Shown: positions 2,217 to 39,297 of the stretch, one piece after another
Position numbering within the stretch: the first letter of the stretch is position 1
Layout: each line of letters begins with the position of its first letter
NCBI GenBank assembly: GCA_963704885.1
Contig: CAVPIB010000004.1
Coordinates: 928,001 to 992,000 of the forward strand
Origin: an uncultured Actinomycetes bacterium
GTDB taxonomy: Bacteria > Actinomycetota > UBA4738 > HRBIN12
Length of the DNA: 64,000 nt
Direction of reading: 5' to 3'
Notes under the pieces: generated by a model
The model's database searches: none
The model's input: only the letters and a program-made list of their open reading frames with translations
What the model was told of the DNA's origin: nothing
Translations under genes and position numbers: made by a program

Positions 2217-3680
2217 ATGGCGGATGTCGACGGAGCCAGACGCGCGCTGGAAGCCGCGCTCGGCCCGGCCGAGGTTCTGGCCGACCCGCTGGCGCTCAAG
2301 CTCTACGCACGTGACGCATCCATGGTCGAAGGCGGCTGCGCGTTGGTCGCGTTCCCTAGATCGACCGACGACATCGTCGCGTGCATGCGGATCGCGACTC
2401 AGCACGGACTGGCCGTCGTACCGCGCGGGAGCGGTACGGGATTGGCCGGCGGGGCCACGCCCATAGGTGACTCGCTGGTCGTGGTCACCTCGAAGATGAA
2501 CACGATCTTGGAGATCCGGACCCAAGATCGCCTGGCCTGGGTCGAGCCGGGGGTGTTCAACCTCGATCTGTCCGACGCGCTCCGGCCGCTCGGATGGACG
2601 TATGCGCCCGATCCCTCGTCTCAGCAGACGTCGTCGATCGGCGGCAACGTGAGCACCAACGCCGGCGGCCCTCACTGCCTGGCCTACGGAGTCACGTCGG
2701 CGCACGTACTCGCGCTCGACGTGGTGCTCCCAGATGGTTCGGTGGAACGGTTCGGCAGCGAGGGACCCGAGGCGCCCGGCTACGACCTCCGCGGGGTCGT
2801 CATCGGCTCGGAGGGAACGCTCGGGATGGTGGCGCGGGTATGCGTTCGTCTCACCCCGCTGCCGCCTGCGGTCCGCACCATGCTTCTGGATTTCGGCAGC
2901 GTCGAGGACTGCGCCGCGACGGTCTCGGACATCATCGCGCGCGGCGTCGTCCCCGCGGCGCTCGAGATGATGGACAACGGCATCGTGGTCGCGGCAGAGA
3001 ACTTCGCGCACGCCGGCTACCCGACCGACGCTGCGGCCATCCTGATCGTTGAGGTCGACGGCCTGCAGTCGGCGGTCGAGTCGCAGACCCGGGAGGTCGA
3101 GGCCGCGGCCGAAACGAACAACGTCCGCACCATCCGGGTGGCGGCCGACGACGCAGAGCGCGCACTCCTTTGGAAGGGACGCAAGTCGGCGTTCGGTGCG
3201 GTTGCACAGATCGCTCCGCACTACCACCTGCACGACTGCGTGGTGCCCAGGACGAAGCTCGTCGAGGTCCTGGCCGGCGTCTACGCGATCGCGAAGCACC
3301 ACGACCTGATAGTCACGAACGTGTTCCACGCCGGCGACGGCAACCTCCACCCGCTGCTCTCGTTCGACCGCAGCGTTCCGGGGACGCTCGAGCGAGTGCT
3401 CCAGGCGAGCGAGGAGATCGTCCGTCTGTGTATCGACGCGGGCGGCGCGCTCAGCGGCGAGCACGGGATCGGCCTGGAGAAACGCGACTTCATGCCGCTG
3501 GTGTTCACGGCGGACGACCTGGCGGCCCAGGCCTGCGTCCGCAACGCGTTCGACCCCGAGCGGCGGATGAACCCCGAGAAGGTGCTGCCCGAAGGCGCCC
3601 GATGCGGCGACTTCGCCATGGCGCACGGGAGCGACGCCGCCGAGGCGGCCGCGAGCCTGCCGGAGGGTTCGTGGATCTGA
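2217..3680 (+). CDS. glcD: Glycolate oxidase-type FAD-linked subunit GlcD
   Basis: PRGSGTGLAGG, PDPSS, GSEGTLG, HAGDGNLHP, GEHGIGLEK. Confidence 0.85.
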   Translation: MADVDGARRALEAALGPAEVLADPLALKLYARDASMVEGGCALVAFPRSTDDIVACMRIATQHGLAVVPRGSGTGLAGGATPIGDSLVVVTSKMNTILEIRTQDRLAWVEPGVFNLDLSDALRPLGWTYAPDPSSQQTSSIGGNVSTNAGGPHCLAYGVTSAHVLALDVVLPDGSVERFGSEGPEAPGYDLRGVVIGSEGTLGMVARVCVRLTPLPPAVRTMLLDFGSVEDCAATVSDIIARGVVPAALEMMDNGIVVAAENFAHAGYPTDAAAILIVEVDGLQSAVESQTREVEAAAETNNVRTIRVAADDAERALLWKGRKSAFGAVAQIAPHYHLHDCVVPRTKLVEVLAGVYAIAKHHDLIVTNVFHAGDGNLHPLLSFDRSVPGTLERVLQASEEIVRLCIDAGGALSGEHGIGLEKRDFMPLVFTADDLAAQACVRNAFDPERRMNPEKVLPEGARCGDFAMAHGSDAAEAAASLPEGSWI

Positions 3681-4705
3681 TCCACCCGCACGCGAAGCAC
3701 GACGTGGTCGAGGTGCTTCGCGACGCCAGCGCACACGGCACGCGCGTCCTCACCGTCGGCGGACGAACCCACATGGACCGGGGCAACCCACGTGAGGTCG
3801 ACGCCGAGCTGTGGACCACCATGCTCGACGAGGTCGCATCCTACGAGCCGGCCGAGATGCTGGCGGCTGTCGAGGCCGGGATGCGCGTCGGCGACCTCCA
3901 GGCCATGCTCGCCGAGGGCGGACAGGAGTGGCCGGTGGACGCGCCGCACGATGCCACCGTGGGCGGGGTGATCGCAGCCGGCGTCTCGTCGTTCCGCCGG
4001 CTGCGCGTCGGCCACGTGCGCGACACGGTGGTCGAGCTGGAGTTGGTGACCGGCGACGGCCGGCTGATCAGGAGCGGCGCGCGGACCGTCAAGAACGTGA
4101 CGGGCTATGACATCCACCGGCTGGCGACCGGCTCCCTCGGCACGCTCGGCGTGATCGTGCAGGCGGCGTTGAAGCTCCGGCCGCTCCCCCAGGTCCGTCG
4201 CCGCATCACGGCCGTCGGCAACGGTCTGGAGCTCGGCTCGCGCTTCCTGGAGCGCATCCCCCTACCGGCCGCGATTCTCGCCGAACCGGAGCGAGCAAGC
4301 GTGTGGCTCGAAGGTTGGATCGAGGAGGTGGAGGAACAGACCGCCGCCGCGCGCACCGCGTCGACGGACCTCTTGATCGACGACGAGCCGCAGCCGTTCG
4401 ACCCGTCGGCGATCCAGGCCCAGGTCGTGGTGGAGGCGGCGGTCGCTCCCTCACGGATCGCGCATGTGGTGTCGGGGCGCGACGGCTGGACCGCACTACT
4501 TGGGATCGGGATCGTCTGGTTCGGCCTGTCGACCGAAAGCGGTGAGCTGGCTCGGATCCGCGACAGTGTCGCCGAGGTTGGAGGGACGGCGCCGGTGATC
4601 AAGGGTCCCGGGGGGCTGGGCCCGACCCACCTCCCCGCGCCGGAGGTTCACGGGCGATTGAAGGATGCCTTCGATCCCGCCGGGATCCTCTCTCCCCCCG
4701 GCTGA
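3671..4705 (+). CDS. glcE: Glycolate oxidase FAD-binding subunit GlcE
   Basis: YEPAEM, ATVGG, VKNVTGYD, GSLGTLG, LKDAFDPAGILSP; GTG start overlaps glcD end. Confidence 0.8.
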   Translation: MDLIHPHAKHDVVEVLRDASAHGTRVLTVGGRTHMDRGNPREVDAELWTTMLDEVASYEPAEMLAAVEAGMRVGDLQAMLAEGGQEWPVDAPHDATVGGVIAAGVSSFRRLRVGHVRDTVVELELVTGDGRLIRSGARTVKNVTGYDIHRLATGSLGTLGVIVQAALKLRPLPQVRRRITAVGNGLELGSRFLERIPLPAAILAEPERASVWLEGWIEEVEEQTAAARTASTDLLIDDEPQPFDPSAIQAQVVVEAAVAPSRIAHVVSGRDGWTALLGIGIVWFGLSTESGELARIRDSVAEVGGTAPVIKGPGGLGPTHLPAPEVHGRLKDAFDPAGILSPPG

Positions 4706-4711
4706 CCCGAA

Positions 4712-4732
4712 GGTCCCGTGCGCCGCGGGACC
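4712..4732 (+). terminator. GC-rich hairpin just after the glcE stop
   Basis: GGTCCCG-N7-CGGGACC; no U-tract. Confidence 0.35.
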
Positions 4733-4773
4733 CTCGACCCGACTCACCTCGCCTCACACCTCCTAACTTCGCT

Positions 4774-4798
4774 CTAACGGACTGGATAGGTCCGTTAG
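4774..4798. promoter_or_regulatory. Perfect inverted repeat upstream of nosZ, candidate operator
   Basis: CTAACGGAC-TGGATAG-GTCCGTTAG (9-7-9), ending just before the AGGAAGGAG ribosome-binding site. Confidence 0.6.
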
Positions 4799-4816
4799 TG
4801 AGGAAGGAGACCTGCG

Positions 4817-6901
4817 ATGGGTTCGGACGGCGGGCCAGACAAGACCGGTACACCCAACGGCGAGCAGGCAACCGGGTCGGGCGTATCACGCCGACCGGTG
4901 AAGCATCGCGGACCGGTGGTGAGCAGGCGCGCGGCGCTCGGGATGATGGCGGGCGGCGCGGCGGCCGGCGTCGTAGGCGCACGGGTCGGATTCGGAGCAT
5001 CGAGCGGAGGGGATCTCTCGCAGATCGCCTCGGATCGAGGACTCGACGGCGACCAGGCGGCCGCAGCACTGAAGACGTTCGTCCCCGGGGGAAGCTTCGA
5101 CGAGTACTTCTTGATGGCGTCGGGCGGCCACTCAGGCCAGATGCTCGTGATCGGCGTGCCGTCGATGCGCCTGCTGAAGGTGATCCCGGTGTTCACGCCG
5201 GAACCGTGGTCGGGCTACGGCTACGGGACGGAACAGTCGATGGCGGTCCTGGCTGGGGGCTCCGATCCCGCTAAGTCGAACCCTCTCGCCTGGGGCGACA
5301 CGCACCACCCGGCACTGTCCGAGACCGAGGGTGACTACGACGGTCGGTTCCTCTACATCAACGACCGGGCCAACGGCCGGATCGGCATGATCGATCTGCG
5401 CGACTTCAAGACGAAGGAGATCTTCGACATCCCGAACCTCCAGACGTCCCACGGCGGGTGCTTCGTCACGCCCAACAGCGAGTACGTCCACATATCCTCG
5501 ATGACACCATGCCCTGCGACCGAGAGCGGCTACGCGCCTCTGTCTCGATACAAGGAGGACTTCCGGGGGTTCTCGACGTGGCTCGCGCTCGACCAGGAGA
5601 CCGGACGGTTCGTGAAGGAGAAGACCTTCCAGATCGAGTTGCCTCCGTACACGCAGGACCTTGCGGATGCGGGAAAGCTCACCAGCTACGGGTTCGGCTT
5701 CATCAACTCCTACAACACCGAGATGGCCACCGGCGGCAACCTGCACGATCCGTCGATGTCCTTAGAGGCCTCAGCGACCAAGAACGACTACGACTTCATG
5801 CACATCATCGACTGGCAGAAGGCCGAGGCGTTCTTCCAGGCCGGATCCGGGATCAAGAAGCTGAACGGCATGTCCGTCATCCCGCTCGACGCGGCGGTAG
5901 GCGAAGGGATCCTGCACTTCGCGCCGGAACCGCGGAACCCACACGGCGTGGACGTGAGCCCCACGGGTGACTACATCTGCGTGAGTGGGAAGCTCGACCC
6001 CAACGGCAACGTCTACTCGATGGAGCGGATCAAGGACGCGATCGCGAACCAGGACTATCAGGGCACCGATGAGTTCGGCGTTCCGATCCTGACGCTCGAG
6101 TCGGTACTCGAGGCGCAGGTCGAGCTGGGCGCCGGCCCACTGCACACACAGTTCGACGACAAGGGCCACGCGTATACGTCGCTCTTCTTGGATTCGGCGG
6201 TGGCGAAGTGGACGCTCGGCCCCAAGGCGGGGCATACCGACGACGCGTTCCAGTTGGTCCAGAAGCTGCCGGTCCACTACAACATCGGTCACCTCTGCAC
6301 GGCCGAGGGCGACACGGTGAACCCGGACGGCAAGTACCTGATCGCGCTCAACAAGTGGTCGATCGATCGCTTCCCGCCGGTCGGCACGCTCCACCCGCAG
6401 AACTTCCAGCTGGTGGACATCGGAGAAGAACCCATGAAGCTCCTATCCGACATGCCGATCGGCCTGGGCGAGCCCCACTACGTCCAGATGATCCACAGGG
6501 ACAAGTTGAAGAACGTCCTGACCGCGTACGAGCCGGCGACCGAACCCAGCGACTGGACGGTTTCCCCGTTCGCCACGGTGGCTGGCGAGGAGCGGATCGA
6601 ACGCGACGGCGACACGCTCCACGTCTACATGACCGCGCAGCGCTCTCACTACACGCCCGACATCGTGGAGGCGAACCTGGGCGATACGCTGCAGTTGCAC
6701 ATCACCAACATCGAGCAGACGCCGGACGCGACCCACGGCTTCGCGATCCCCTCGTACAACATCGAGGCCAGCCTCGACCCTGGCGAGGTCGTGAACATCG
6801 CGGTTCCGCTCGACCGGGCGGGTACGTTCGCCATGTACTGCTCGGAGTTCTGCTCGGCCCTACACCTGGAGATGCAGGGCTGGCTCCAGGTTGCCCCGTG
6901 A
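4817..6901 (+). CDS. nosZ: Nitrous oxide reductase, clade II-type, with twin-arginine-like leader
   Basis: All 7 CuZ His (DTHHP, SHGG, PHGVD, PLHT, IGHL, EPHY); CuA ligands THGF...CSEFCSALHLEM; clade II-type N-terminus SGGHSGQMLVIGVPSMRLLKVIPVF; SRRAALG followed by a hydrophobic stretch. Confidence 0.96.
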   Translation: MGSDGGPDKTGTPNGEQATGSGVSRRPVKHRGPVVSRRAALGMMAGGAAAGVVGARVGFGASSGGDLSQIASDRGLDGDQAAAALKTFVPGGSFDEYFLMASGGHSGQMLVIGVPSMRLLKVIPVFTPEPWSGYGYGTEQSMAVLAGGSDPAKSNPLAWGDTHHPALSETEGDYDGRFLYINDRANGRIGMIDLRDFKTKEIFDIPNLQTSHGGCFVTPNSEYVHISSMTPCPATESGYAPLSRYKEDFRGFSTWLALDQETGRFVKEKTFQIELPPYTQDLADAGKLTSYGFGFINSYNTEMATGGNLHDPSMSLEASATKNDYDFMHIIDWQKAEAFFQAGSGIKKLNGMSVIPLDAAVGEGILHFAPEPRNPHGVDVSPTGDYICVSGKLDPNGNVYSMERIKDAIANQDYQGTDEFGVPILTLESVLEAQVELGAGPLHTQFDDKGHAYTSLFLDSAVAKWTLGPKAGHTDDAFQLVQKLPVHYNIGHLCTAEGDTVNPDGKYLIALNKWSIDRFPPVGTLHPQNFQLVDIGEEPMKLLSDMPIGLGEPHYVQMIHRDKLKNVLTAYEPATEPSDWTVSPFATVAGEERIERDGDTLHVYMTAQRSHYTPDIVEANLGDTLQLHITNIEQTPDATHGFAIPSYNIEASLDPGEVVNIAVPLDRAGTFAMYCSEFCSALHLEMQGWLQVAP

Positions 6902-6927
6902 TCGGATCGAACAGGAAGGAGCAAGAT

Positions 6928-7368
6928 ATGCGCAGGTTCAGTCTGCTGGCGGCCGCGGCGCTCGCGACCGCCATGGTATTGGCCGCATGTGGCGGCGGTG
7001 ACGATGGAAGTGGTGACGGCGGTGGCGACGGAGGTGGCGACAACGGGGGCGGCGGCTCGACGGCCCTCGCGGTCACGGCCCCGAGCGGCGCTGCGAACGA
7101 CGGGTTCGCGGAGACGTCGCTCAGCGTTGCCGCCGACACTCCGTTCACCATCAACTTCACCAACGAAGACGAAGGCATCCTGCACAACGTGCAGATCTTC
7201 GAGGGAACGGATACGAGCGCAACGGCCGTGTGGACACCCGAGGGGAACGCCATGATCACCGGACCGGACGAAGCGCTCTACGAGATCCCCGCCCTGCCGG
7301 CGGGCACCTACACGTTCAACTGCTTCTCGCACCCGACCACCATGGTCGGGACGTTGACGGTGGGCTAG
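6928..7368 (+). CDS. Cupredoxin (type 1 blue copper) lipoprotein
   Basis: Lipobox LAAC, Gly/Asp-rich linker, HNV...CFSHPTTM (H,C,H,M ligand set); AGGAAGGAG RBS. Confidence 0.85.
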   Translation: MRRFSLLAAAALATAMVLAACGGGDDGSGDGGGDGGGDNGGGGSTALAVTAPSGAANDGFAETSLSVAADTPFTINFTNEDEGILHNVQIFEGTDTSATAVWTPEGNAMITGPDEALYEIPALPAGTYTFNCFSHPTTMVGTLTVG

Positions 7369-7381
7369 GGATCTGGAAACG

Positions 7382-8098
7382 ATGAGGATGGCGGCCGACC
7401 CGATCTCCCAGACCGAGCGAGCGAACGTGAACTCAACGCCAGGCCTCGGAGACACCCCTCCCGCCCCCGCGACCCCCTCGCGGACGCCGGGCATGCGGAT
7501 AGGGATCGGGCTCGCGGCCGCCATCCTCGTCATCCTGGCGTGGCGCCTCCCGATCTGGGAGGCAAGGCTCTCGGCGCCGCAGTACCCACTGGGGCTCTCG
7601 CTCAGCGCGGGCGCCCAAGGTGTTAGCGGAGACATCGAACAGATCAACGTTCTGAACCACTACGTGGGGATGGCGGCGTTCGATCCCTCGGACGCGCCTG
7701 AGACGGCTCTTTGGGTGTGGGCGATCCTGTTCGCGCTCGGGGCGGTCGCGGTGGCGACGGCGTTGGACGTTCGTCACCCGCTCGCTCGGCTGGCGCGGAT
7801 CGGACTGTGGCTCGTCCCTCTAGGCGCACTCGCCGACGTGCAGTACCGGCTCTACCAGTACGGGCACAGCGTCCAGCCCGACGCCACGATCCGATTGGAG
7901 CCGTTCACCCCTCTCGTTATCGGACCCACCCGTGTGCTGAACTTCACGACCTGGGCGTTCCCAGGCGGAGCGATCTGGTGCCTGCTCGGCGCAGCGTTCC
8001 TCATGAGCTTCGGGGCTCGCTTGATCTTGTGGGGCCGCGAAAGGTGGGCGACCCGGCCCATCTACGTGGACGATGACGTGGAGATCGAAGCGTCGTGA
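7382..8098 (+). CDS. nosB: NosB-like membrane protein of clade II nos clusters
   Basis: LPIW...APQYPLGL, INVLNHYVGM, YQYGH, PFTP motifs; about 4 TM segments; position between nosZ and nosD. Confidence 0.75.
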   Translation: MRMAADPISQTERANVNSTPGLGDTPPAPATPSRTPGMRIGIGLAAAILVILAWRLPIWEARLSAPQYPLGLSLSAGAQGVSGDIEQINVLNHYVGMAAFDPSDAPETALWVWAILFALGAVAVATALDVRHPLARLARIGLWLVPLGALADVQYRLYQYGHSVQPDATIRLEPFTPLVIGPTRVLNFTTWAFPGGAIWCLLGAAFLMSFGARLILWGRERWATRPIYVDDDVEIEAS

Positions 8099-9609
8099 GA
8101 CGTCGCGCGGTATTCGCCGTTCTGGCCCTTCTGGTCGTGGCCGCGGCCTCGGCGTACATGCTTGGCTGGTTAAGCAGCCCAACCGACCAGGTGGCTGCTC
8201 CGGTCCGGTCGGTCACCATGCCGGCGGCGCACCTGCAGTCCATGATCGATGCCGCACCCGACGGCTCCACGCTCGAGGTCCCGGCCGCGACCTACGCTGG
8301 ACGCCTGCGCGTCGATCATCCACTCACGCTGGTGGCACAGGGGAAGGTCGTGGTCGACGCGGGCTGGCTCGGCTCGGTCCTACGGATCACAGCTCCCGAT
8401 GTCACGGTTGATGGCTTCACCCTCCGTCGCTCCGGCATCGGCCCGGTCGGAGCGCCATCCGGGATCCTCGTTGAGAACGCGGATCGAGCTTTGATCCGCG
8501 ACGTCAGGATCGAGCACAGCTACATGGGGATCACTGTTCGTCGCTCAAGGAGCGTGTCCATCGAGGGCGTAACGATCGTCGGCGAGGGACTGATCATAGG
8601 GGAGCTCCACGCCGTGAACGCACCGTCCGACGCGCACGCCGGCCACGACATGGCTGATCCGGAGAGGAGCGTGGCATCTCCCGGCGGGCAGATCCGCGGT
8701 GACGGGATCTGGCTCTGGAACACCATCGACGCCGAAGTCAGGAACTCGACCATCACGGGCGTCCGCGATGGGATCTACGTCTCGTACGGGATTCGTTCTC
8801 GCCTGATCGGGAACACGATCGCCGACAGCCGTTACGCGGTTCACGACATGTACGCCGAGGATCTCCTGCTCCACGAGAACACGCTGACTGGCAACCTCTC
8901 GGGCCTGGTCCTGATGTACGGCGGGCCTGTAGACGTGATGGGCAACACGATCACGGAGTCCGGCAGTCCCTCCACAGGCTTCGGCATCCTGGTGAAAGAC
9001 GCCGGCGGCGTCAACGTTCGGCGGAACATCATCGCCGACAACCGCGAGGGGCTTCATATCGACGACGCAGGCCGAACGGGAGGAGAGCCCGTGCAGGTGG
9101 CGGACAACACGATCGCCATGAACCAGGTGGGCGTCCTGATCTTCCCGTCGGCCGACTCCGGGTTCACCGGCAACGGGTTCATCGAGAACTCCACCCAGGT
9201 CGCGCTCGGCGGCAGCGGGACCACGCAAGCAGATTGGACGGTGGGCGGCGTCGGCAACTACTGGAGCGACTACAGCGGATTCGATGGCGGCGGGGACGGA
9301 GTCGGCGACGTCCCCTACTCGGCCAGCGGGCGGGTCAGCAGGCTCCTGGCGGAGGAACCGCTCTTGGCCGCGCTCACCTCCGGCCCCGCCTTCAGGCTCC
9401 TGAACTCACTCGAGGATCGCTGGTCGGATGCCGTGCCCGTCGTGAACGATGACGCCCCGATCCTGACCTCGCGCGGTCCCGCGATGGGGGGTGGCCCCGG
9501 AGGCTCGCCAACCCTCCTGTGGCTGGCTGGAGGCGCCTTGATCACGGCGAGCGCATGGGCGCTGCTGCGCTCGCGAAGGCCGCGGAGGGGGGTGACCGCC
9601 CATGCCTGA
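8095..9609 (+). CDS. nosD: NosD, N2O reductase maturation protein (beta-helix)
   Basis: RGDGIWLWN, RDGIY, RYAVHDMY, GNYWSDY motifs; N-terminal signal and C-terminal TM. Confidence 0.9.
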   Translation: MRRRAVFAVLALLVVAAASAYMLGWLSSPTDQVAAPVRSVTMPAAHLQSMIDAAPDGSTLEVPAATYAGRLRVDHPLTLVAQGKVVVDAGWLGSVLRITAPDVTVDGFTLRRSGIGPVGAPSGILVENADRALIRDVRIEHSYMGITVRRSRSVSIEGVTIVGEGLIIGELHAVNAPSDAHAGHDMADPERSVASPGGQIRGDGIWLWNTIDAEVRNSTITGVRDGIYVSYGIRSRLIGNTIADSRYAVHDMYAEDLLLHENTLTGNLSGLVLMYGGPVDVMGNTITESGSPSTGFGILVKDAGGVNVRRNIIADNREGLHIDDAGRTGGEPVQVADNTIAMNQVGVLIFPSADSGFTGNGFIENSTQVALGGSGTTQADWTVGGVGNYWSDYSGFDGGGDGVGDVPYSASGRVSRLLAEEPLLAALTSGPAFRLLNSLEDRWSDAVPVVNDDAPILTSRGPAMGGGPGGSPTLLWLAGGALITASAWALLRSRRPRRGVTAHA

Positions 9610-10309
9610 ATCCTCCGACCGGTTCCTGGAGGTCGAGGACCTCACGAAGACGTACCGCGGCGGGTGGGGGCTGCACGACGTGTCGTTCTCGTTGGCCGGG
9701 GGGCGGATCGCCGCGCTCGACGGGCCGAACGGCAGCGGGAAGTCCACGATGCTCCGATGCCTGGCGGGACTGGTCCGGCACCACGGCCGGATCTCGCTGC
9801 GCGGTGAGCCCTTGAACGAGCGGCCCGACCTGCGCGCCGAGATCGGCTTCCTGCCTCAGTCCGTCTCCTTCCCCGAGCAAGCCACGATCGGCGAGGTGAT
9901 GGATCTGTTCGCCCGGCTCCGCGGAACGACGATCGACGACCATCCCTTCCCAGACGGGTTCGTGTCGGAAGACGATCGGCTGATGGGCGAGCTGTCCGGC
10001 GGTCAGCGGCACCGGGTGGCCGTCGCGGTGGCCTTGCTCGGACGCCCCTCGCTCCTGCTACTGGATGAGCCGGTCGCCGGCCTGGACGAGGCCGCACGGG
10101 GAACGTTCTGGGCAGTTCTACGCGACTTGGCCGATCGCGACGGTGTCACGTCGATCGTCTCGAGCCCCTTCCCCGCGGAGCTCCGCGGCGTGGCCGACTG
10201 CGCGCTCCACATGGTCGACGGGGACCTTCGCACGCTCGAGGACCCGATCCAGCCGACCCCTCTGCGGTCCGTTCACGGTCCTGAAGACCAGCTGGAGGCG
10301 AACGCATGA
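9602..10309 (+). CDS. nosF: ABC ATPase NosF
   Basis: Walker A GPNGSGKST, LSGGQ, LLLLDEP; follows nosD. Confidence 0.85.
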   Translation: MPESSDRFLEVEDLTKTYRGGWGLHDVSFSLAGGRIAALDGPNGSGKSTMLRCLAGLVRHHGRISLRGEPLNERPDLRAEIGFLPQSVSFPEQATIGEVMDLFARLRGTTIDDHPFPDGFVSEDDRLMGELSGGQRHRVAVAVALLGRPSLLLLDEPVAGLDEAARGTFWAVLRDLADRDGVTSIVSSPFPAELRGVADCALHMVDGDLRTLEDPIQPTPLRSVHGPEDQLEANA

Positions 10310-11139
10310 GCACCACGAACGCCACCACCCTGATCGCGTCGTGGGAGTACCGCACGGCGGTGCGCTCGCGGTGGGTCCTGACCATGGCGGCCGTCTTCGG
10401 CGGGCTGTGCGTGATCGTGACGCTCCTGGCCTTCCGCACGGTACGCGAGCTGGGCCTCACCGGGATCGGCCCCGCGTCGGCCACGCTCGTGAACCTCGGA
10501 GTGCTCCTCCCCTCCCTCATGGGACTACTCCTGGGAGCGGGGTCGCTGGCCGGGCAACGCGAGCACGGCCTGCTGGCGTTGGTCTGCGCACAGCCACTCC
10601 GGCGTTCGCAGGTGGCGACGGGAGCGGTGCTCGGCCTCAGCGCCTCGCTGCTCACGACCCTGGGCGTGGGGTTCGGCCTGGCGCTGCTGATCCTGGCCGG
10701 CGTGGCGCGGGGGACAGACCTTCCGGCGCTGCTCGCTCTGGCAGGAACGACCGCGGGCGTCGGTGCCGCGAGCGTGGCCATCGGTGTCGCGATCTCGACG
10801 ATGGTGGCCAGCCGGGTCCAGGGGATCTCGATCGCGGTTGGGCTGTGGATCCTCATGGCCCTCGGCGTGGATCTGGCGCTCGCCGCGCTGGCCCCCAGCG
10901 TCCATCTGGGACCGCTCGGCCTGCTGATAGTCGTGATGCTGAACCCGCTCGAGACGGGCCGGATCCTGGCTCTCCTGGCTACTAACCTCAAGGGAACCGC
11001 GCTCGGCCCGTTCGGCGCGTACATGGTGTCGACGTTCGGCACCGCCGGCGCCGTCGGTCTGCTGGTTGCCGATCTGGTGGCGTGGATCGCGCTGCCAACC
11101 CTTCTTGCCAGGCGCGCGCTGACCCGCGCAGACCTGTGA
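10306..11139 (+). CDS. nosY: ABC permease NosY
   Basis: About 6 TM segments, QREHG...QPLRR and LNP motifs; follows nosF. Confidence 0.85.
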   Translation: MSTTNATTLIASWEYRTAVRSRWVLTMAAVFGGLCVIVTLLAFRTVRELGLTGIGPASATLVNLGVLLPSLMGLLLGAGSLAGQREHGLLALVCAQPLRRSQVATGAVLGLSASLLTTLGVGFGLALLILAGVARGTDLPALLALAGTTAGVGAASVAIGVAISTMVASRVQGISIAVGLWILMALGVDLALAALAPSVHLGPLGLLIVVMLNPLETGRILALLATNLKGTALGPFGAYMVSTFGTAGAVGLLVADLVAWIALPTLLARRALTRADL

Positions 11140-11152
11140 AGGCGAGGTGTGG

Positions 11153-11584
11153 ATGAGGTTCACCAGACAGAGCCGCTACGCGATCGAAGCCCTGCGCGTG
11201 CTCGCGACCCACGAGCCCGACGAGATCGTGGACGCGCGCGAACTCGCCACGGAGGCGGGACTGCCGAGTCCGTACCTGTCGAAGATCCTCCAGCAGCTCG
11301 CGGCGGGCGGAGTCCTCAAAGCCGTGCGAGGGCGCGGGTATCGGCTTGCGCAACCCGCCGAGGAGATCCGGATCGACGAGGTGATCCGCACGGTCGAAGG
11401 AGGCGACGCCATCTGGGACGCCTGCATCTTCTGGCGCGAGGAGTGCAACACGGAGGACCCGTGCCCGCTCCACTTCCGCTGGCGGGAGCTGAAACCCGGC
11501 CTCCAGCTGGCCATGAACACCCTCACGCTGGCCGATGTGCGTGAGCGCTGGGCGCCGATGCCCAACAGCGTCTCAACGGCCTGA
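11153..11584 (+). CDS. Rrf2 family transcriptional regulator, probably Fe-S binding
   Basis: YAIEAL, PYLSKILQQL, RGRGYRLA winged HTH; C-terminal CIFWREECNTEDPCPLH (3 Cys + His). Confidence 0.9.
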   Translation: MRFTRQSRYAIEALRVLATHEPDEIVDARELATEAGLPSPYLSKILQQLAAGGVLKAVRGRGYRLAQPAEEIRIDEVIRTVEGGDAIWDACIFWREECNTEDPCPLHFRWRELKPGLQLAMNTLTLADVRERWAPMPNSVSTA

Positions 11585-11595
11585 GATCAGCGGCT

Positions 11596-11616
11596 ACTAG
11601 TCTGATTCAGACTAGT
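11596..11616. repeat. Palindrome ACTAGTCTGA-T-TCAGACTAGT (copy 1 of CTAGTCTG-N3-CAGACTAG)
   Basis: Read directly; overlaps the aminotransferase stop codon between convergent genes. Confidence 0.85.
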
Positions 11617-12767
11617 GCGCGGAGCCTTTCGCCGGCAGCCTCCAACGTCTCGAGCTTCTTGCAGAACGTGAACCGGAGCAGATGCGCTCCCTGCTTGGGC
11701 TCGGAGAAGAACGACGACCCCGGGACGGTCCCCACTCCGATCCGTTCGACCAGATCGTGCGCAGCGGCCACGTCGTCCGGGTAGTCCAGATGCGAGATGT
11801 CGGCCATGACGTAATAGGCGCCCTTGGGCGGCGACGCCTGGAACCCCGTCTCCGCCAGGATGCTCATCAGGAGCGAGCGACGCTCGTCGTACTCGGCCAC
11901 GACACGCTCGTAGTAGCTGTCGGGGAGGTTGAGCGCCGTGATCCCAGCCACTTGCAGCGGCGCGGGTGCCGCCACGGTGAGGAAGTCGTGCACCGGGCGC
12001 AACGCATCGGTCAGCTCACATGCCGCGATCGTCCAACCCACGCGCCACCCGGTCACCGAGTACGACTTGGAGAGCGCGCTGATGGTGACGGTCCGATCCT
12101 CCATCCCGGGGATCGTTGCGATAGGCACGTGCTCCACGCCGTCGTAGGTCAGGTGCTCGTATATCTCGTCTGTGATAGCGATGACGTCGTGGGCTACGCA
12201 GAGCTCCGCGATCAAAGAGAGCTCCTCGCGCGTGAACACCTTCCCGGTCGGGTTGTTCGGCGAGTTCAAGACGATGGCCCGGACGCGACCGGAGAACGCC
12301 GCACGCAGCTCGGCCTCATCGAACGTCCAGTCGGGGGGATGCAGCGTGACCAGACGCGGCACCGCTCCAGCTATCAAGGCGTCGGGTCCGTAGTTCTCGT
12401 AGAAGGGCTCGAAGACCACGATCTCGTCGCCCGGATCCACCAGGCCCAGCATCGCCGCGATCATGGCCTCGGTGGACCCGCAGGTGACGCAGATCTCCGT
12501 CTCAGGGTCGACACGCATGCCGTATAGGCGGTCGTACTGCGCGGCGATCGCCTCGCGGAACTCCGGCACGCCCCAGGTCACCGGGTATTGGTTGTGATCG
12601 TCGGCGATCGCCTGGCGTGCGGCCTCCTTCACCTCGTCCGGCGCCGGGAAGTCCGGGTATCCCTGGCCCAGGTTGACGGCGTCGTGCAGGTCGGCCAGGC
12701 GCGTCATCTCGCGTATCACCGACTCGGTGAACGACGACGACTTCGCGGAGCGACGGGTTCTCGACAC
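11607..12767 (-). CDS. PLP-dependent aminotransferase class I/II
   Basis: NLGQGYPDF, NSPNNPTG, DEIY, SALSKSYSVTGWRVG. Confidence 0.92.
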   Translation of the reverse strand: MSRTRRSAKSSSFTESVIREMTRLADLHDAVNLGQGYPDFPAPDEVKEAARQAIADDHNQYPVTWGVPEFREAIAAQYDRLYGMRVDPETEICVTCGSTEAMIAAMLGLVDPGDEIVVFEPFYENYGPDALIAGAVPRLVTLHPPDWTFDEAELRAAFSGRVRAIVLNSPNNPTGKVFTREELSLIAELCVAHDVIAITDEIYEHLTYDGVEHVPIATIPGMEDRTVTISALSKSYSVTGWRVGWTIAACELTDALRPVHDFLTVAAPAPLQVAGITALNLPDSYYERVVAEYDERRSLLMSILAETGFQASPPKGAYYVMADISHLDYPDDVAAAHDLVERIGVGTVPGSSFFSEPKQGAHLLRFTFCKKLETLEAAGERLRALV

Positions 12768-12856
12768 GCCGTGGAGACTAGCCGTTCGATGGTCGTCGCA
12801 GCGCCGGACCTGCGGGGATGAGCCGGGCCCGGAACCGGGTCGGATACAGTGGCCGC

Positions 12857-14131
12857 GTGGCGATCGGCTCCGACCTCCCCGCAGGCGTACGGTTCATCGG
12901 CGGTGAGTCAGGCGCCGCGGCGGCGTGGCCCTTGCAGGACGCGCCCGCCGACGCGGATCTCTCGTCCTGCGTGGCTTGCGGCCTGTGTCTCCCCCACTGC
13001 CCCACGTACCGGCTGACCGGCGAGGAGTCGGCCTCGCCGCGCGGGCGGATCACCGCCATGCGCGCGGTGAGCGAAGGCACGGCGACCGTCGATAACACGT
13101 TCGCGTCGTTCATGGATCTGTGCCTGGTCTGCCGGGCTTGCGAGGACGTATGCCCGTCGCACGTGCCGTTCGGCAGGATGATGGAGCGCGCGCGCGTCCA
13201 GGTGGAGCCGTTGCGCACCCGGCGGGCGCGGTTCGTTCGGTGGCTGGGGCTCGACATCGTCCTGCCGCACCCGTTCGTGCTGCGGGTCATGACGGCGCTC
13301 CAACCGATCGCGCGTCCGTTCCTGCGTCGCCGGATCCGCGCGATGATCCCGCGGCGTGCGTCGCCCTTCGCACGTCTGCCGCGCGAGACGGTCCCTCCCG
13401 AGGGCGTCGAGATCCGAGGAACGGTGGGGGTCCTGGCGGGCTGCGTCCAAGACCGGTGGTTCCACGAAGCCAACCGCGCCACGATCCGCGTGCTCGCCCG
13501 CAACGGCTGGCGCGTGACGGTGCCGCGCGAACAACGCTGCTGTGGCGCGCTTGGCGCCCACAACGGCCGGCTGAAGATGGCGCGGAAGCTGGCGCGACGC
13601 AACGCCCGGGCGTTCGCGGGCGTGGACCACGTGATCGTGAACGCCGCGGGCTGCAGCGCTCACATGAAGACCTACGTCGAGCTCGAGGAAGGGACGTCGC
13701 TCCCGGTCCGAGACCTGATGGAGTTCCTGGCGGAGGAGGGACTGACGGCCCAGCCCACCGAGCCGCTCACGGACGGCCTGATCGCCTACCACGACGCATG
13801 CCACGCGCTCCGCGCCCAGCGGATCTACGAGCAGCCGCGGACCGTGCTCCGCCAGATCCCGGGCATCCAGATCGCGGAGATCGCCAACGGCGACCGCTGC
13901 TGCGGGGCAGCCGGCCTATACAACGTGCTCGAGCCCGAGATGTCGGGACGGCTGATGCGCCAGAAGGCCGAGGCGATCCGGGATACGGGAGCCCGGGTGA
14001 TCGCGAGCGCGAACCCCGGGTGCAGCATGCAGATCGCCGCCGGACTCCGTGAGCTCAAGGTGGACACCGAGGTGGTCCACCCCGTCCAGCTGCTCGACCG
14101 AGCCTACGCTGCCTCGCCGGGTCAGGGCTGA
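12857..14131 (+). CDS. glcF: Glycolate oxidase Fe-S subunit GlcF
   Basis: Two 4Fe-4S motifs (CVACGLCLPHCP, CLVCRACEDVCP), CCG domains, YHDACH, ANPGC; GTG start follows TACAGT-N6. Confidence 0.85.
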   Translation: MAIGSDLPAGVRFIGGESGAAAAWPLQDAPADADLSSCVACGLCLPHCPTYRLTGEESASPRGRITAMRAVSEGTATVDNTFASFMDLCLVCRACEDVCPSHVPFGRMMERARVQVEPLRTRRARFVRWLGLDIVLPHPFVLRVMTALQPIARPFLRRRIRAMIPRRASPFARLPRETVPPEGVEIRGTVGVLAGCVQDRWFHEANRATIRVLARNGWRVTVPREQRCCGALGAHNGRLKMARKLARRNARAFAGVDHVIVNAAGCSAHMKTYVELEEGTSLPVRDLMEFLAEEGLTAQPTEPLTDGLIAYHDACHALRAQRIYEQPRTVLRQIPGIQIAEIANGDRCCGAAGLYNVLEPEMSGRLMRQKAEAIRDTGARVIASANPGCSMQIAAGLRELKVDTEVVHPVQLLDRAYAASPGQG

Positions 14132-30412: not shown

Positions 30413-33400
30413 CTATGGGCAGGGATCGACGTGCAGGTACTGGCGGCACTCTTCTGACGTGAGCGACCGTGTGACGTTCGTTCGAGCGATCGCGAGCAGC
30501 TCGTCGATGTCGAGGGTCCAGACGCGCACACCGTCACAGTCCTGCGCCGCGAGGAGCGCGCCGTCGGGACTGAACGCGAGGCCGCCCCCGTAGCAGAACT
30601 CGTGCCCTAGATCCGGCGCCGGCGCAGGCAGCGTGAGACGCAGCTCCCGCGTGTCGGTGTCGTAGAGACGCACCTCCTGCCTCCCGATGACCGCCAGGGT
30701 CGACCCGTCGGGACTGAACGAGACGCGTCCCCTCGCTTCCTCGGGAAACGACCCCAAGAGCTGCGCGGATGCCACGTCCCAGATCCGGATGGGTCCATCC
30801 TCATCCTGCGTGACGATCCTTCCCCCGCGAGGATCGATCGCCACGCTGGTCGCGTGGGTGGGGAGAGTGGCGATCTCGGACCCGTCAGCACCGTCGAGCA
30901 CGACCACGACCCGATCCGGGTCTGCGTCGGCGCCGGCGATGGCGATGGTCCCGTCCGGACCAACCTCCAGGACTCCGATCGACAGCGGCTGCGCCCTCCG
31001 CCAGACCTCGCGACCGTCGAGTCCGACCAACGCGATGGAAGCCTGCGTGGGCGAGACGACGAGGTGGGCGCCATCGGGCGCCCAGGATGCGAACGCTGTC
31101 TCGATCGGAGGTCGGCTGACGCTCGTCCCTTCGACCAGGGCGAGGACCCCACCGCGACGCTGCTGGATGACCGATCCGTCGACCGGGTTCACCTCGAACG
31201 GGGCGATCGGCAACGTGAGGGAGAGTCCGAACGGGGTCGGCGCGGGCGCCCCCAGATCCCACGCGAGGAGGCCCGCCCCGGCCTTCCCATCGTCGGCGAC
31301 GATGATGAGTCGGCTCCCCGACGGCGTGAACTCGACCTGGCCCGACCAGATGGTCGGCAGCGACAGACCGGCCCGCTCCCCGTCGCCCACGGGGCGAACG
31401 TCCCAGATCCGGACGGCATCCGAGGCGGTCACGATCCGCTGACCGTCGGCGGTGAAAGCGACGTCCGTGACGGCGCCGGCGCCGGCGCCGCCGGCCGCGA
31501 GGAACGCCAGTGTCGATCGGAACTCGGTGGAACCGACCTCCCAGACCTTGGCGCTTCCGTCGATCGAGCCCGTGACCAGTCGCTCGCCGTCGGGGCTCCA
31601 GTCGGAGGTGATGACGGTGGCGTCGTGCTGCCAGGCGGTGTACAAGAGCTCCCCGGTCGTCGAATCCCAGACGTAGGCACTGCCCGATAGGAGACGACCA
31701 TCGGGACTCCATGACAGGGGGCCGTTGATCCCCCTGAAGGGCGGCGCTCTGAAAGCGACACCGCGACCACGGCCGATGGTGGGAACGATGCGGCCGCCAT
31801 CATCGCCGTTCCTCTCCACCATGACGATGGCGATGCGCGACCCGTCGGGACTGAGTGCCACGTGGTCGTAGTGGTTCAGGCCATCGAACGTCCTGACCAC
31901 TCGCAACGTCCTGACCACTCGCCCGGTATCGGCGCGAGCCACAACGACTCGGCCGGCCGACGGCCAGCGCGCCGCCACCAGCGAACCCTGCACGTCGAGT
32001 GCGATCCCCCGTGCCTCGCGCGAGCCGTGACGTTCCCACAAGAGGGAATCGCTCTCTGCGTCCCACACGCGGAGCCAGCCGTCGGTCCCAGTCGTGATGA
32101 GGCTCGTCCCGTCCGGCGTGAACGCCATGTCGGTCACACGACCCTCGTGCGCGCCGAAGGCGCGCACGAGGGCACCCGAGGGATCGAGGATCGCCACGCG
32201 CCCGGGCCCGTCTGCTTCTTGCGCCGCGATCGAACCGTCGACGCTCGTGGCGACGGGGCCGCTCAGCCCCGGGATCGTCGCGACGATCCGTGACGCCGCG
32301 ATCGCGCGGTGGAGCGCCTCCACGGCCTCCGGAACCGCTGCACCGGTGGCTGCGCGCGAGCGTTCCACCGCCTCCATCGCGAGCAGCACCGCGCGCTCGG
32401 GGTCGTCGTCGAGGTTCGCGACCGATGCGGCGGCCAGCTCGCGGGCCCCCGAGATCGCTGCCTCGCGGCTCGCGCGGCGACTCTGGCCGGTCGCGACGAG
32501 CGTGAGCGAGCCCGCGACGAGAGCGGCCACCGCGAAGACCGCGACGAGCGCGCGGAGCCGCCGGGCCGCACGCCGCTCGACCTCAGCCTCGTGCTCGCGC
32601 CGTCGCTCGTCCGTGAGCCGCTCTTCCTCGCGCGCGCCGGCGGCGGCGGCCACGTACCTCCGAACGTCGTGTCCGAGCGCCAGGCCCGTCGACCCGACCC
32701 ACCCTTCGGCCTGCTCGAGCCTGGCTCCCCGCAGAAGGAAGCTCGGATCCTGCCCGGCTGCGGCCCACTCCGACGCGGCCCGGGCCAGGATGCGTTCCTG
32801 ACGCAGGTCTTCGCGCGCCTCGTCGATCCACCCGTGCAGCCGTGGCCATGCGTCGAGGAGCGCCTCGTGCGCGATCTCGACGGTCGGCTCGCGAGAGGCA
32901 GGCTCGCGGTCGAACGTCAGGATCCTCAGGCGCCCGAACGTCTCGAGCACGTGGTCGATCGTCGTGTCCTCGAGGTTCAGCGAGCCGAGGGTACTTCGCG
33001 TGACCCGTCGCCGCGTATCCCGCCTGCCCTCACCGAGCGCTACGAGCCGGAGGAAGATCTGGCGGATCGCGCGCCGCTCGTCCCCGCCGGCCCGCCGCAC
33101 CGCCTGGTCCGCGCTCGACGCCAGCGTGCCCACGATGCCACCGAGGTCGCGATAAGTGGCGAGCGTCATCGCGCGGTCGGAACGCCGGTCGAACAGTTCG
33201 GTCAGGGTGAACTGGATCAGTGGCAGCGAGCCCGGTTGGTGAGCCGCATCCGCGATCATGTCCGCCACGAGACCCGGCTGGGGGTGCACGCCGGCGCGTT
33301 CGGCCGGGCCGCGGATCGCCTGTTCCAGTTCGTCCGGCTGCAGCGGAGCGATCGCTTCGGTCCGGCTCGCGAGCAGCTCCCCGAACCTCGGGTATACGAG

Positions 33401-35347: not shown

Positions 35348-35459
35348 CCGGCGACCGTACCCAGGACCTCGTTCGTGGCGCAAGGTGGCATCGTGGACCG
35401 GGCCGCGCAAGGTTCACGCAAACCCGAACGGATGCGCGGCGATATCCTCGTCGGAAGCT

Positions 35460-37822: not shown

Positions 37823-39295
37823 GTGAAGGCCGGAGGGATCAACGAGCGACGGAACCGGATCGGCCTCCGGTGGATCGGCCTGGGGCTCTGGCTCGCGCTG
37901 CTCGCGGGCAGCGCCGTCCTGGCGCGTGCCGCCGGCGCCACCACGTCCGCGCTGCCGTTCGTTGCCGTCGCCGTGCTCGCGGTCCTCGGAGTGGTCGGGC
38001 TGGTCGCGTATGCGCGCCTGACGAGCGCGCCGCCGCAGCTGCGCACGCTGCGCGTGTTCGCGATCTTGCTGCCCACGCTGTTCATCATGTGCATCGAGGC
38101 GATCCTGCTGATCGTCGAGGCCGACGAGCTGTTCACGGAGGTGGGCGAGCACATCCTCGTGACGGCGGTCCTCTCGCTTTGCGCGATCCCGTTCTCGATC
38201 TGGATATTCCGGTCGTTCGCCGCGCTCCGTGACGAGCTCGCCCGTCGCGCCGCGCGGCTCGAGCGGCTCCATCGCGCATCGCTCACAGTGACCGGCGAAC
38301 CATCGGTGCCGCGGCTGCACGAGGCCATCGTGCGCGGTGCTCGCGACGTGGTCGCCGCCGATCGGGCCGTCCTGCTGCTCGCTGCCGGTGACGGCGAGGA
38401 GGGCCTGATGGCCGACCCGCCGGTCCCCGAGCCCGACGAGATCGACCTGGCCCTGCTCCGCTCGGCCGGGTCGGCGGCGTCCGACGGCGCCGACCGCTCG
38501 TACCTGACCACCCGCACCCGTGGGGGGGCGCCTCATGTCCTGCTCGTACGGCGGGCGGCCGGATCGCCGTTCGGCGCGGAGGAAGGGCTCGTCCTCGACA
38601 TGTTCGGTGTGGCGGCGGCCGCCGGCCTGGAAAACGCCCAGCGTCTGGAGGAGGCCCAGCAGTTGGCGACGGTCGAGGAGCGGGAGCGGATCGCGAGGGA
38701 TCTCCACGATGACCTCGGGCAGCTCCTCGGATACCTCACGACGAAGATCCAGGCCGCTCGCGAGTTGGTCGCGTCCGGCCGGTCGAGCGCGGCCGCGGAG
38801 GAGCTCGCCGGCCTGGAGGAGGCGACCCGCTCGTTGAGCGCCCAGGTGCGCGAGGCCATCCTGGGGCTGCGGACCTCCGTCGGACCGGACCGGCCCCTGG
38901 GGCAGGCGATCGAGGAATACACGGCGGAGTTCGGGATCCAGGCGGGCCTCCGCACGTCCTTCTCGGGTCCGGTGACCGCCGGTGGTTCCCTGGCCAGTCC
39001 CGCGCGGTATCAGGTGATGCGGATCGCCCAAGAGGCGATGTCCAACGCCCGCCGGCACGCAGCGGCCACGACGATGGCGGTCGCGCTCGACGAGCACGAC
39101 GGCGTATTCGAGCTGTCCGTGCGAGATGACGGCGCGGGATTCGACCCGACGACAGCGGCCCGCTCGGGACGGTTCGGCCTGATCACGATGGCCGAGCGTG
39201 CGCGGGCTGTGGGCGGGACCCTCGACGTTCGGTCGACCCTCGGCGAGGGGACGACCGTTGCCCTGTCGGTGCCGGTCAACCCGGTGGGAGCCTGA
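37823..39295 (+). CDS. Membrane sensor histidine kinase (HisKA_3, NarX/UhpB-like)
   Basis: 4 TM segments, GAF-like region, ERERIARDLHD, QEAMSNARRH, DDGAGF. Confidence 0.92.
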   Translation: MKAGGINERRNRIGLRWIGLGLWLALLAGSAVLARAAGATTSALPFVAVAVLAVLGVVGLVAYARLTSAPPQLRTLRVFAILLPTLFIMCIEAILLIVEADELFTEVGEHILVTAVLSLCAIPFSIWIFRSFAALRDELARRAARLERLHRASLTVTGEPSVPRLHEAIVRGARDVVAADRAVLLLAAGDGEEGLMADPPVPEPDEIDLALLRSAGSAASDGADRSYLTTRTRGGAPHVLLVRRAAGSPFGAEEGLVLDMFGVAAAAGLENAQRLEEAQQLATVEERERIARDLHDDLGQLLGYLTTKIQAARELVASGRSSAAAEELAGLEEATRSLSAQVREAILGLRTSVGPDRPLGQAIEEYTAEFGIQAGLRTSFSGPVTAGGSLASPARYQVMRIAQEAMSNARRHAAATTMAVALDEHDGVFELSVRDDGAGFDPTTAARSGRFGLITMAERARAVGGTLDVRSTLGEGTTVALSVPVNPVGA

Positions 39296-39297
39296 CC

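Follow-up and report, generated by a model that had tools for sequence, protein, structure and literature searches.

A clade II nitrous-oxide reductase gene cassette with a lipoprotein cupredoxin in an uncultured actinobacterium

We analyzed a 64,000-nucleotide stretch of DNA from an uncultured Actinomycetes bacterium (contig CAVPIB010000004.1, positions 928,001 to 992,000; hereafter the window), which carries a nos gene cluster built around nosZ, the gene for nitrous-oxide reductase. Seven intact plus-strand genes at 4817–11584, separated by intergenic gaps of −8 to +26 nt, likely form a complete, probably functional, and self-contained cassette for respiratory nitrous oxide (N2O) reduction, judged from the genes that it encodes to be of a type particular to one monoderm lineage of Actinomycetota and to use a cupredoxin as electron donor. 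A first-pass annotation, made from the sequence of the window, had proposed the order nosZ, lipoprotein cupredoxin gene, nosB, nosD, nosF, nosY, and Rrf2-family regulator gene, and all seven genes were found in their places, open and tightly packed. That annotation had also noted the lack of several usual partners, and family-model scans of the seven products likewise returned no NosL, NosR-type, NapG/H-type, Rieske, or cytochrome c match. No Fe-S or NapGH-like product was found in the cluster by these scans, and no FMN-binding or NosR-like domain was found among the cluster products, NosR not having been searched for genome-wide. Among the open reading frames (ORFs) of the window that were retained for their length (at least 70 aa) and high third-position GC content, none contained a CxxCH motif.

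The first gene, nosZ (4817–6901, +), is preceded at a distance of 8 nt by the ribosome-binding site AGGAAGGAG and encodes a clade II nitrous-oxide reductase of 694 aa. The product scored 746.1 bits against the clade II model TIGR04246 (cut-off 625), and it fell below the cut-offs of the Tat-type clade I model TIGR04244 (396 bits; cut-off 625) and of the clade III model (205 bits; cut-off 700), so that the clade II assignment made on first reading was borne out. The best database match showed 96% identity. With ligand roles assigned by motif correspondence with solved clade I enzymes, all of the CuZ histidines (H163, H164, H212, H329, H376, H443, and H554) and all of the CuA ligands (H640, C675, C679, H683, and M686) were present. 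The enzyme had been described as intact with full ligand sets, and the twelve residues proved to be conserved in 30 relatives: they were invariant except for H329 and H443, which were conserved in at least 90%. In a phmmer alignment to PDB 5i5i, H329 is offset by two columns from the histidine of the template.

The window has a G+C content of approximately 68% and belongs to a 1.14-Mb contig of a 3.0-Mb genome assembled in 20 contigs (97.15% complete). This genome is actinobacterial and monoderm, as had been suspected. It contains four WhiB genes, detected by a search that matched Corynebacterium only among 14 control genomes, and no Omp85/BamA gene was found in it by a search that matched all seven diderm controls. 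The nearest NosZ loci, with 64–83% identity, came from metagenome-assembled genomes (MAGs) of Actinomycetota, labelled Actinomycetota, Actinomycetes, Acidimicrobiaceae, Iamiaceae, or Ilumatobacteraceae, together with one Bifidobacterium, and loci from other phyla showed 40–46% identity, apart from one short fragment with 58%. Within the phylum, NosZ exceeded the TIGR04246 cut-off in 14 of 401 genomes, the source genome included, in none of the three other members of the genus, and in two of the 22 other members of the family. The gene is thus rare and patchily distributed in Actinomycetota, within genus and family as well, which agrees with the earlier remark that N2O reduction is rarely described in this phylum. 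A protein database held at least 120 NosZ clusters at 61% identity or more; among those listed, 13 bore the name 'Sec-dependent nitrous-oxide reductase' and came from MAGs of Actinomycetota or Acidimicrobiia.

The second gene (6928–7368, +) encodes a lipoprotein type-1 (blue) cupredoxin of 146 aa, which matched PF13473 with 28.7 bits (cut-off 27) and PF00127 with 22.0 bits (cut-off 21.2), narrow margins in both cases. A lipobox, LAAC, occupies residues 18–21 (6979–6990) and is followed by a Gly/Asp-rich linker; the lipobox was also present in those relatives whose N-termini were recovered. The copper ligands H86, C132, H135, and M139, arranged as His ... Cys-x2-His-x3-Met toward the C-terminus, were invariant in 13 of 13 orthologues. 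An AlphaFold2 model of the cupredoxin domain, which has the Greek-key beta-sandwich fold of the family, had pLDDT values above 90, and a Foldseek search of the PDB with it gave at least 244 matches at E ≤ 1e-3, the best of which were plastocyanins, amicyanin, auracyanins, and the purple cupredoxin of N. maritimus. By sequence, the best PDB matches were auracyanins B and A (E 1e-3 to 3e-3, identity approximately 20–27%).

Comparison of related loci revealed that the position of this gene is strongly conserved. A lipoprotein cupredoxin gene lay between nosZ and nosB in all 17 related Actinomycetota loci with downstream sequence, which upheld the expectation that the cupredoxin would be retained beside nosZ in relatives, and it occupied the same slot in 8 of the 13 other NosZ-positive genomes of the phylum sample. 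Twelve of the 17 slot cupredoxins belonged to the family of the window's protein, and the other five to a second family with a Cys-x4-His-x4-Met loop. BLASTP found no alignment between the two families at E ≤ 100. Both of the NosZ leader types described below occur with second-family cupredoxins (37% identity, E 2e-21), and one locus that carries such a cupredoxin, L006, sits among first-family lineages on the NosZ tree. This conflict between cupredoxin family and tree placement indicates that the slot has been refilled at least once. The retention of the slot while its occupant was swapped is, on these sequences, the strongest comparative argument that NosZ would need such a protein. The best-scoring relatives of the cupredoxin in other genomes were the nos-adjacent copies (69% identity in G321 and 58% in G014). 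A metagenome search started from the cupredoxin returned six loci, two of them real and four matching the low-complexity leader and linker only, and both of the true relatives sat between nosZ and nosB. For the other phyla, a nosB match began no more than 317 nt past the end of nosZ in 21 of 22 loci, which leaves too little space for a cupredoxin gene.

The 13 other NosZ-positive genomes fell into three groups, apart from one that ends 279 nt past nosZ. Three genomes combined a twin-arginine NosZ with the window's cupredoxin family, five combined a hydrophobic-leader NosZ with the second cupredoxin family, and four had a NosZ with a lipobox, nosB directly after nosZ, and no cupredoxin. All four lipoprotein-NosZ genomes carried NosL inside the nos cluster, and three of the four carried a small CxxCH lipoprotein there. 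NosL was found in none of the seven cupredoxin-type genomes, including the source genome, for which the NosL model (PF05573) gave no match at 97.15% completeness (the same model matched the controls B. subtilis and H. volcanii). Judging from this gene content, the lineage of the window is one that has lost the cytochrome and NosL and has the cupredoxin.

The cassette also behaves as a unit in the genomes of close relatives. Two genomes of the same genus, G354 (locus L089) and G157 (L091), lack NosZ, and in both the glcD–glcE pair directly abuts an aminotransferase gene. In the source window, a segment of approximately 6.9 kb (about 4706–11606) that holds the whole cassette separates glcE from the aminotransferase gene. 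Because the cassette-free relatives have the glcDE–aminotransferase junction, this presence/absence segment indicates that the seven genes, cupredoxin and regulator included, are gained or lost as one unit. G321, from another genus of the same family, carries the cassette at the same site, and G014 carries it elsewhere. The flanking glcD and glcE products were 52–88% identical in relatives. As a side observation, the glycolate-oxidase-like genes of the window are split by the nos cassette and the aminotransferase gene, with glcD and glcE at 2217–4705 and glcF at 12818–14131. A promoter and terminator scan of 4500–11800 gave no promoter-like hit and one terminator-like hit inside nosB, fewer than in shuffled sequences, and such a scan is uninformative at so high a GC content.

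The four genes after the cupredoxin would provide for maturation of NosZ. The membrane protein encoded at 7382–8098 (+; 238 aa) matched no Pfam or NCBIfam model, and tblastn located a counterpart with 27–66% identity as the gene that follows nosZ, or follows the cupredoxin gene, in 38 of the 44 loci examined, 22 of these 38 being from other phyla; the remaining six loci end within or just past nosZ. We read it as nosB on account of this homology. The next gene, nosD (8095–9609, +), encodes a maturation protein of the beta-helix type that has hydrophobic segments at both termini; it scored 126 bits against Pfam NosD and matched P. stutzeri NosD (PDB 7o0y) with E 3e-38. The gene is followed by nosF (9602–10309, +), for an ABC ATPase (PF00005, 93 bits), and nosY (10306–11139, +), for an ABC-2 permease (PF12679, 52 bits), both syntenic in relatives. 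Alignment of NosD proteins revealed a His-rich insert at residues 169–190 (8599–8664, +), which maps between residues 151 and 155 of P. stutzeri NosD. The insert was present in 11 of 11 cupredoxin-type rows, where it begins with a conserved [G/D]E[L/M]H and, in the majority, contains further histidines; it was absent from all three NosL-type actinobacterial rows and from five of seven rows from other phyla, the other two, from Verrucomicrobiota, having a different insert. NosB, NosD, NosF, and NosY would mature NosZ without NosL, and we speculate that the His-rich loop of NosD captures copper in place of NosL. NosB and NosD were fused in a single ORF of 711–794 aa in L015 (7860–10124), L083 (7025–9160), and L084 (6583–8967); such fusions were found in hydrophobic-leader relatives and in L015. 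Elsewhere in the source genome, an unusual 655-aa fusion protein (G000:C1:473227-475194, −; L060 2227–4194) joins an arginine-rich leader, an N-terminal type-1 cupredoxin, a NosD-like right-handed beta-helix, and a C-terminal PLDc_N membrane segment.

To return to nosZ, its product bears the twin-arginine motif SRRAALG at residues 36–42 (4922–4942, +), followed by a 17-residue uncharged, Gly/Ala-rich core and then an Arg. R37 and R38 were invariant in 30 of 30 aligned relatives. Among the best 120 NosZ relatives, 62 had a leader of the form [ST]RRx[A/S/T][LIV]G and the remainder did not, apart from seven further RR-type proteins with N-terminally truncated gene calls and one false-positive regex match (P0119). 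Over the 62 leaders (65–96% identity), RR and A[LIV]G were invariant while the flanks varied. The core of the RR group was 17 residues long with a mean Kyte-Doolittle value of 1.88 (sd 0.18, n = 63, false positive included), and that of the non-RR group was mostly 18–22 residues long with a mean of 2.71 (sd 0.54, n = 56, including seven truncated calls that scored 1.07–1.82). TIGR04244, the Tat-type clade I model, aligned NosZ from residue 35 to profile position 2. In a FastTree phylogeny of 152 rows computed with the leader columns removed, the leader label changed three times, two of these changes being truncated calls, and in an IQ-TREE phylogeny of 44 rows (20 RR, 18 non-RR, and 6 outgroup), again without the leader, the RR rows lay on one side of a branch with an SH-aLRT of 100. 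On these sequence trees, the RR leader type is one clade. The source genome encodes TatC (218 bits) and has canonical SRRxFL leaders on other proteins. The lipobox Cys of the lipoprotein-type NosZ aligned with the end of the hydrophobic core in the other two leader types, and in all three types the same Gly/Ser-rich stretch and helix came after the lipobox Cys or the core end. Given this coincidence of positions, the leader possibly stays uncleaved and keeps NosZ tethered to the membrane.

To see from where the cupredoxin could draw electrons, the haem c and cupredoxin complement of the genome has to be considered. Only two convincing haem c proteins were found in the genome, both membrane-bound. 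One is a 246-aa membrane-anchored monoheme cytochrome c, whose gene shares an operon with those for a Rieske protein and a split cytochrome b, and the other is a caa3-type subunit II with a fused cytochrome c domain; CcdA, ResB, and CcsA, for System II maturation, lie between the bc-type and caa3 operons. No small soluble or lipoprotein cytochrome c was found in the genome. The first-pass annotation had set the cupredoxin in the place of cytochrome c and NosL. Most of the checks by which that annotation could have been refuted came out for it, and its interpretation is supported in part. Neither cytochrome c nor NosL is encoded in the cluster, and NosL was not found genome-wide either; c-type cytochromes, namely the two membrane haem c proteins, do exist elsewhere in the genome. 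The cupredoxin more plausibly acts as a carrier that receives electrons from a haem c protein than as a link in a chain free of haem. The most economical path would lead from menaquinol through the complex of Rieske protein, cytochrome b, and monoheme cytochrome c to the tethered cupredoxin and on to CuA of NosZ. The cupredoxin would be held on the outer side of the membrane by its lipid anchor and flexible Gly/Asp linker, and it would take the role proposed for NosC, a lipoprotein cytochrome c, in Bacillota and other Actinomycetota. That it is the direct donor to CuA we infer from the place of its gene, its copper ligands, and its predicted fold.

Several other redox genes of the genome bear on electron transfer. 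Cupredoxin-domain matches numbered 15 in the genome; one forms the C-terminus of a NirK-like protein, and two in tandem adjoin the cox operon. At 40069–42861 the window holds three genes, for an NrfC-like 4Fe-4S protein whose leader bears the canonical Tat motif SRRSFLGK, for an NrfD-like membrane protein, and for a lipoprotein cupredoxin of 169 aa, with a two-component system just upstream (37823–39960); this module looks like a haem-free quinol:cupredoxin oxidoreductase. We considered it as a NosZ-specific feeder on the quinol side and rejected it, as an NrfD homologue was found in only 5 of 26 family genomes. Nor did the homologue follow NosZ, as it was not found in the NosZ-positive genome G014 and was present in the NosZ-negative genomes G332 and G248. 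The COX1 gene (G000:C1:709050-710881; L058 17050–18881) appeared as two ORFs that cover profile positions 1–313 and 327–436 and overlap by 4 nt, through a frameshift, a sequencing error, or a true split.

Two other accounts of the cupredoxin were weighed. It might act as a copper chaperone instead of NosL and deliver Cu(I) to NosD or NosZ, with NosZ receiving its electrons from the membrane cytochrome c or another carrier. We regard this as improbable, although the anticorrelation is perfect (NosL in none of the seven genomes with the cupredoxin and in all four without it) and copper chaperones with cupredoxin-like folds exist. NosL and the cupredoxin are, moreover, both small lipoproteins (for NosL, as described in the text of PMC13685413). 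The cupredoxin nevertheless retains the full His-Cys-His-Met set of electron-transfer blue copper proteins throughout its 13 orthologues, its best structural matches are all electron carriers, and its close paralogues are fused to NirK or stand beside the cox operon, contexts usually read as electron transfer. The lipoprotein cytochrome c that accompanies NosL in three of the four NosL genomes is a more direct counterpart of the cupredoxin, and the NosL-less clusters have the His-rich insert in NosD. The second account, in which the cupredoxin is a general membrane-tethered carrier, serving for example NirK or an oxidase, and accompanies the cassette without being a dedicated partner of NosZ, we hold to be improbable to much the same degree. 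The family is large, with a match in 112 of the 401 phylum genomes, several paralogues in each, and five in the source genome (11 unpublished genomes, G343, G148, G088, G048, G391, G226, G001, G174, G336, G120, and G239, are included in this tally and in no other), and the genome has the nirK–cupredoxin fusion and the separate NrfC/NrfD/cupredoxin module in addition. Set against this are the nos-adjacent position of the top relatives in G321 and G014 and of both metagenome relatives, the retention of the slot through the family swap, the gain or loss of the gene together with nosZ within the genus, and the fact that the NosZ-positive genomes G321, G014, and G398 gave no match to the source nirK at E ≤ 1e-60. 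Some points do weigh against a complete cassette with the cupredoxin as its donor. With a family so large and so rich in paralogues, specificity for NosZ has to be argued from position. NosD scored 293.9 on TIGR04247, just below the cut-off of 300. The fetched NosZ loci and the 401-genome sample were drawn from overlapping species-representative collections and are not independent. The losses of cytochrome and NosL coincide and amount effectively to one evolutionary contrast, so that the comparison by itself does not separate electron carrier from copper chaperone. With these points taken into account, an electron-donating cupredoxin remains the reading that we prefer.

The export route of NosZ was weighed in the same way. 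The leader had been called Tat-like; its invariant arginines and weakly hydrophobic core agree with this, and the Pfam TAT_signal model does not, since it gave no match to the RR-type leaders of five proteins even at E ≤ 10 (it does match an amidase elsewhere in the window). Because of that failure, we favour export via Tat with only moderate confidence. The alternative is that the leader is a Sec signal or an uncleaved signal anchor, its arginines forming a positive n-region, and that the enzyme is exported like other clade II enzymes; this we consider unlikely, though less so than either of the other accounts of the cupredoxin. Apart from the TAT_signal result, it can draw on the sister actinobacterial group, whose leaders are plainly hydrophobic, lack RR, and finish in the same GAR(V/L)G, on the 'Sec-dependent' naming of relatives by NCBI, though that name derives from the family model and not from a test, and on the commonness of a loose twin-arginine pattern, which fits 104 of the 3092 ORFs of the genome. 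The motif also has Ala where the Tat consensus has Phe, and the consensus Lys is absent. A plain n-region, however, would not account well for RR and A[LIV]G remaining constant over 62 leaders despite variable flanks, nor for the coincidence of the RR switch, on a single branch, with a shorter (17 against 18–22 residues) and much less hydrophobic core. The clade I Tat-type model aligns its leader positions to the same stretch, the genome encodes TatC along with several proteins that have canonical SRRxFL leaders, and a Tat-type clade II NosZ with nosB has been published for Chloroflexota (text of PMC11409646). The leader fragment of one relative, L014, matched PsbQ (E 0.016) and the PetC membrane anchor (E 0.09), too weakly to be used. 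Tat export thus remains the favoured route.

The cluster closes with the gene for an Rrf2-family regulator (11147–11584, +; TIGR00738, 94 bits; cut-off 73.3), which has cysteines C93, C100, and C106 followed by a His, as is typical of cluster-binding members, and which is not an NsrR equivalog (NF008240, 36.4 bits against a cut-off of 182). Of the 15 actinobacterial loci with sequence beyond nosY, all except L002 likewise have an Rrf2 gene at the end of the cluster (14 of 15). At 4775–4797, 20–42 nt before the nosZ start, lies an operator-like perfect palindrome, TAACGGAC-N7-GTCCGTTA. Perfect repeats of the same consensus, with arms of at least 7 bp, occurred at the same place in L003, L004, L006, L008, and L014, and repeats with one or two mismatches in L011 and L078. 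A genome-wide search for its 14 bases with up to two mismatches gave 10 matches, two of which were upstream of gene starts, those of nosZ and of the nirK–cupredoxin gene. The latter gene (G000:C1:281149-282579, −; L046 1054–2484) encodes a NirK-like multicopper protein with a C-terminal cupredoxin that scored 197 bits against TIGR02376, below the cut-off of 296. The palindrome was absent upstream of nirK in two cassette-free genomes of the genus, which have no copy of the cassette's Rrf2 gene either. Its occurrence at both nosZ and nirK, and its absence at nirK in cassette-free relatives, suggest the pairing of regulator and operator, and the Rrf2 protein of the cassette probably binds the predicted palindromes before both genes. 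Two points speak against this: the site at nirK, 81 nt upstream of that gene, has two mismatches, and approximately 10 genome-wide matches are near the number estimated by hand from base composition.

A second, GC-rich palindrome, GGTCCCG-N7-CGGGACC, lies at 4712–4732, 85–105 nt upstream of nosZ. Palindromes of the form (A)TGGTCCC-N7-11-GGGACCA were found at a similar distance before nosZ in L001, L003, L004, L008, L009, L010, and L013, and looser GC-rich palindromes were recognized by eye in L002, L006, L011, and L014, as well as upstream of nirK in two same-genus genomes. We rejected it as a specific operator: the motif is common in this GC-rich genome, with 110 matches at up to one mismatch, and its specificity is accordingly weak. 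No nitric-oxide reductase was found in the genome, which has a single haem-copper oxidase (COX1-family) gene.

Other features of the window lie apart from the nos cassette. A 1665-aa signalling protein is encoded at 30413–35410 (−) and combines a winged-helix/BTAD activator, a protein kinase, an nSTAND1 NTPase, and WD40 propellers. At 43461–46604 (−), a CoxS/CoxM-like pair surrounds a molybdopterin large-subunit frame that seems to be spread over at least three overlapping frames (ORFs 43867–44685, 44120–45121, 44442–45242, and 44929–46488), perhaps because the gene is broken or the assembly is faulty here; a second set, at 48646–52401, is intact.

Set beside known systems, the cassette is a little-described form of a known N2O-reducing system and not a separate kind, because blue copper donors to NosZ are known in principle. 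Clade I NosZ can take electrons from pseudoazurin. The NosZ of haloarchaea has a leader with Tat motif and lipobox, and a halocyanin encoded near nirK has been proposed as donor to NirK (text of PMC8301774). Pseudoazurin and halocyanin share with the window's protein the feeding of a copper denitrification enzyme by a small type-1 copper protein; unlike it, they are soluble periplasmic or archaeal, are encoded outside the nos operon, and serve clade I enzymes. The auracyanins of Chloroflexus and Roseiflexus are likewise membrane-tethered blue copper proteins that replace soluble cytochrome c; the photosynthetic and aerobic chains in which they act receive their electrons from Alternative Complex III.

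The closest architecture is that of the Bacillota clade II clusters (nosC-nosZ-nosB-nosD-nosY-nosF(-nosL)), such as those of Geobacillus thermodenitrificans and Bacillus azotoformans, in which, according to the text of PMC3475470, the lipoprotein cytochrome c gene nosC precedes nosZ. These clusters share with the window a monoderm host, a clade II NosZ, nosB after nosZ, nosDFY, the lack of nosR, and a small lipoprotein redox protein beside nosZ as presumed donor (PMC3475470). The four Actinomycetota genomes with lipoprotein NosZ and NosL, three of them with a lipoprotein cytochrome c, have a Bacillota-like architecture. The window differs in having a type-1 copper protein after nosZ where Bacillota have a cytochrome c before it, in lacking NosL, in the NosZ leader, which in this lineage is of the twin-arginine or hydrophobic type and not a lipobox, in the His-rich insert of NosD, and in the terminal Rrf2 gene. 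A clade II subgroup of Chloroflexota likewise has a twin-arginine leader and nosB, in a different phylum; the main text of the paper that describes it makes no mention of Actinobacteriota (PMC11409646). According to the text of a 2026 review, clade II clusters encode c-type cytochrome(s) and/or a NosG/NosH quinol dehydrogenase (PMC13685413), and the window cluster departs from this in having neither cytochrome c nor NosGH. It also lacks NosL, another usual feature of clade II clusters, and with its twin-arginine motif and weakly hydrophobic core the NosZ leader is a doubtful example of the Sec type that is customary in clade II. Open-access main texts yielded no account of a nos cluster from Actinomycetota that has a cupredoxin or a Tat leader. 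What is new here, in addition, is the 6.9-kb presence/absence cassette, the palindrome shared by nosZ and nirK, and the NosD His-rich insert restricted to NosL-less clusters.

NosZ is, to our knowledge, the only biological sink of N2O, and which organisms carry it and what it requires decide how metagenomes are interpreted for N2O-reducing potential and how that potential might be engineered. The variant shows that, in monoderm Actinomycetota, a clade II enzyme can occur in the absence of three components regarded as standard, namely the cytochrome, the NosGH module, and the chaperone NosL; annotation pipelines would misjudge it if they demanded these genes or called the enzyme 'Sec-dependent'. 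The bounded seven-gene cassette is also a convenient object for tests of the electron donor, of the dispensability of NosL, and of the export route. More tentatively, and with considerable doubt as to the whole, these loci may represent a widespread uncultured lineage of Actinomycetota with a Tat-inserted NosZ, an obligate lipoprotein blue-copper donor, NosL-free CuZ assembly via the NosD loop, a mobile 6.9-kb unit, and an Rrf2 switch that also controls nirK. If that is true, the lineage would be an overlooked, compact, and transferable N2O sink.

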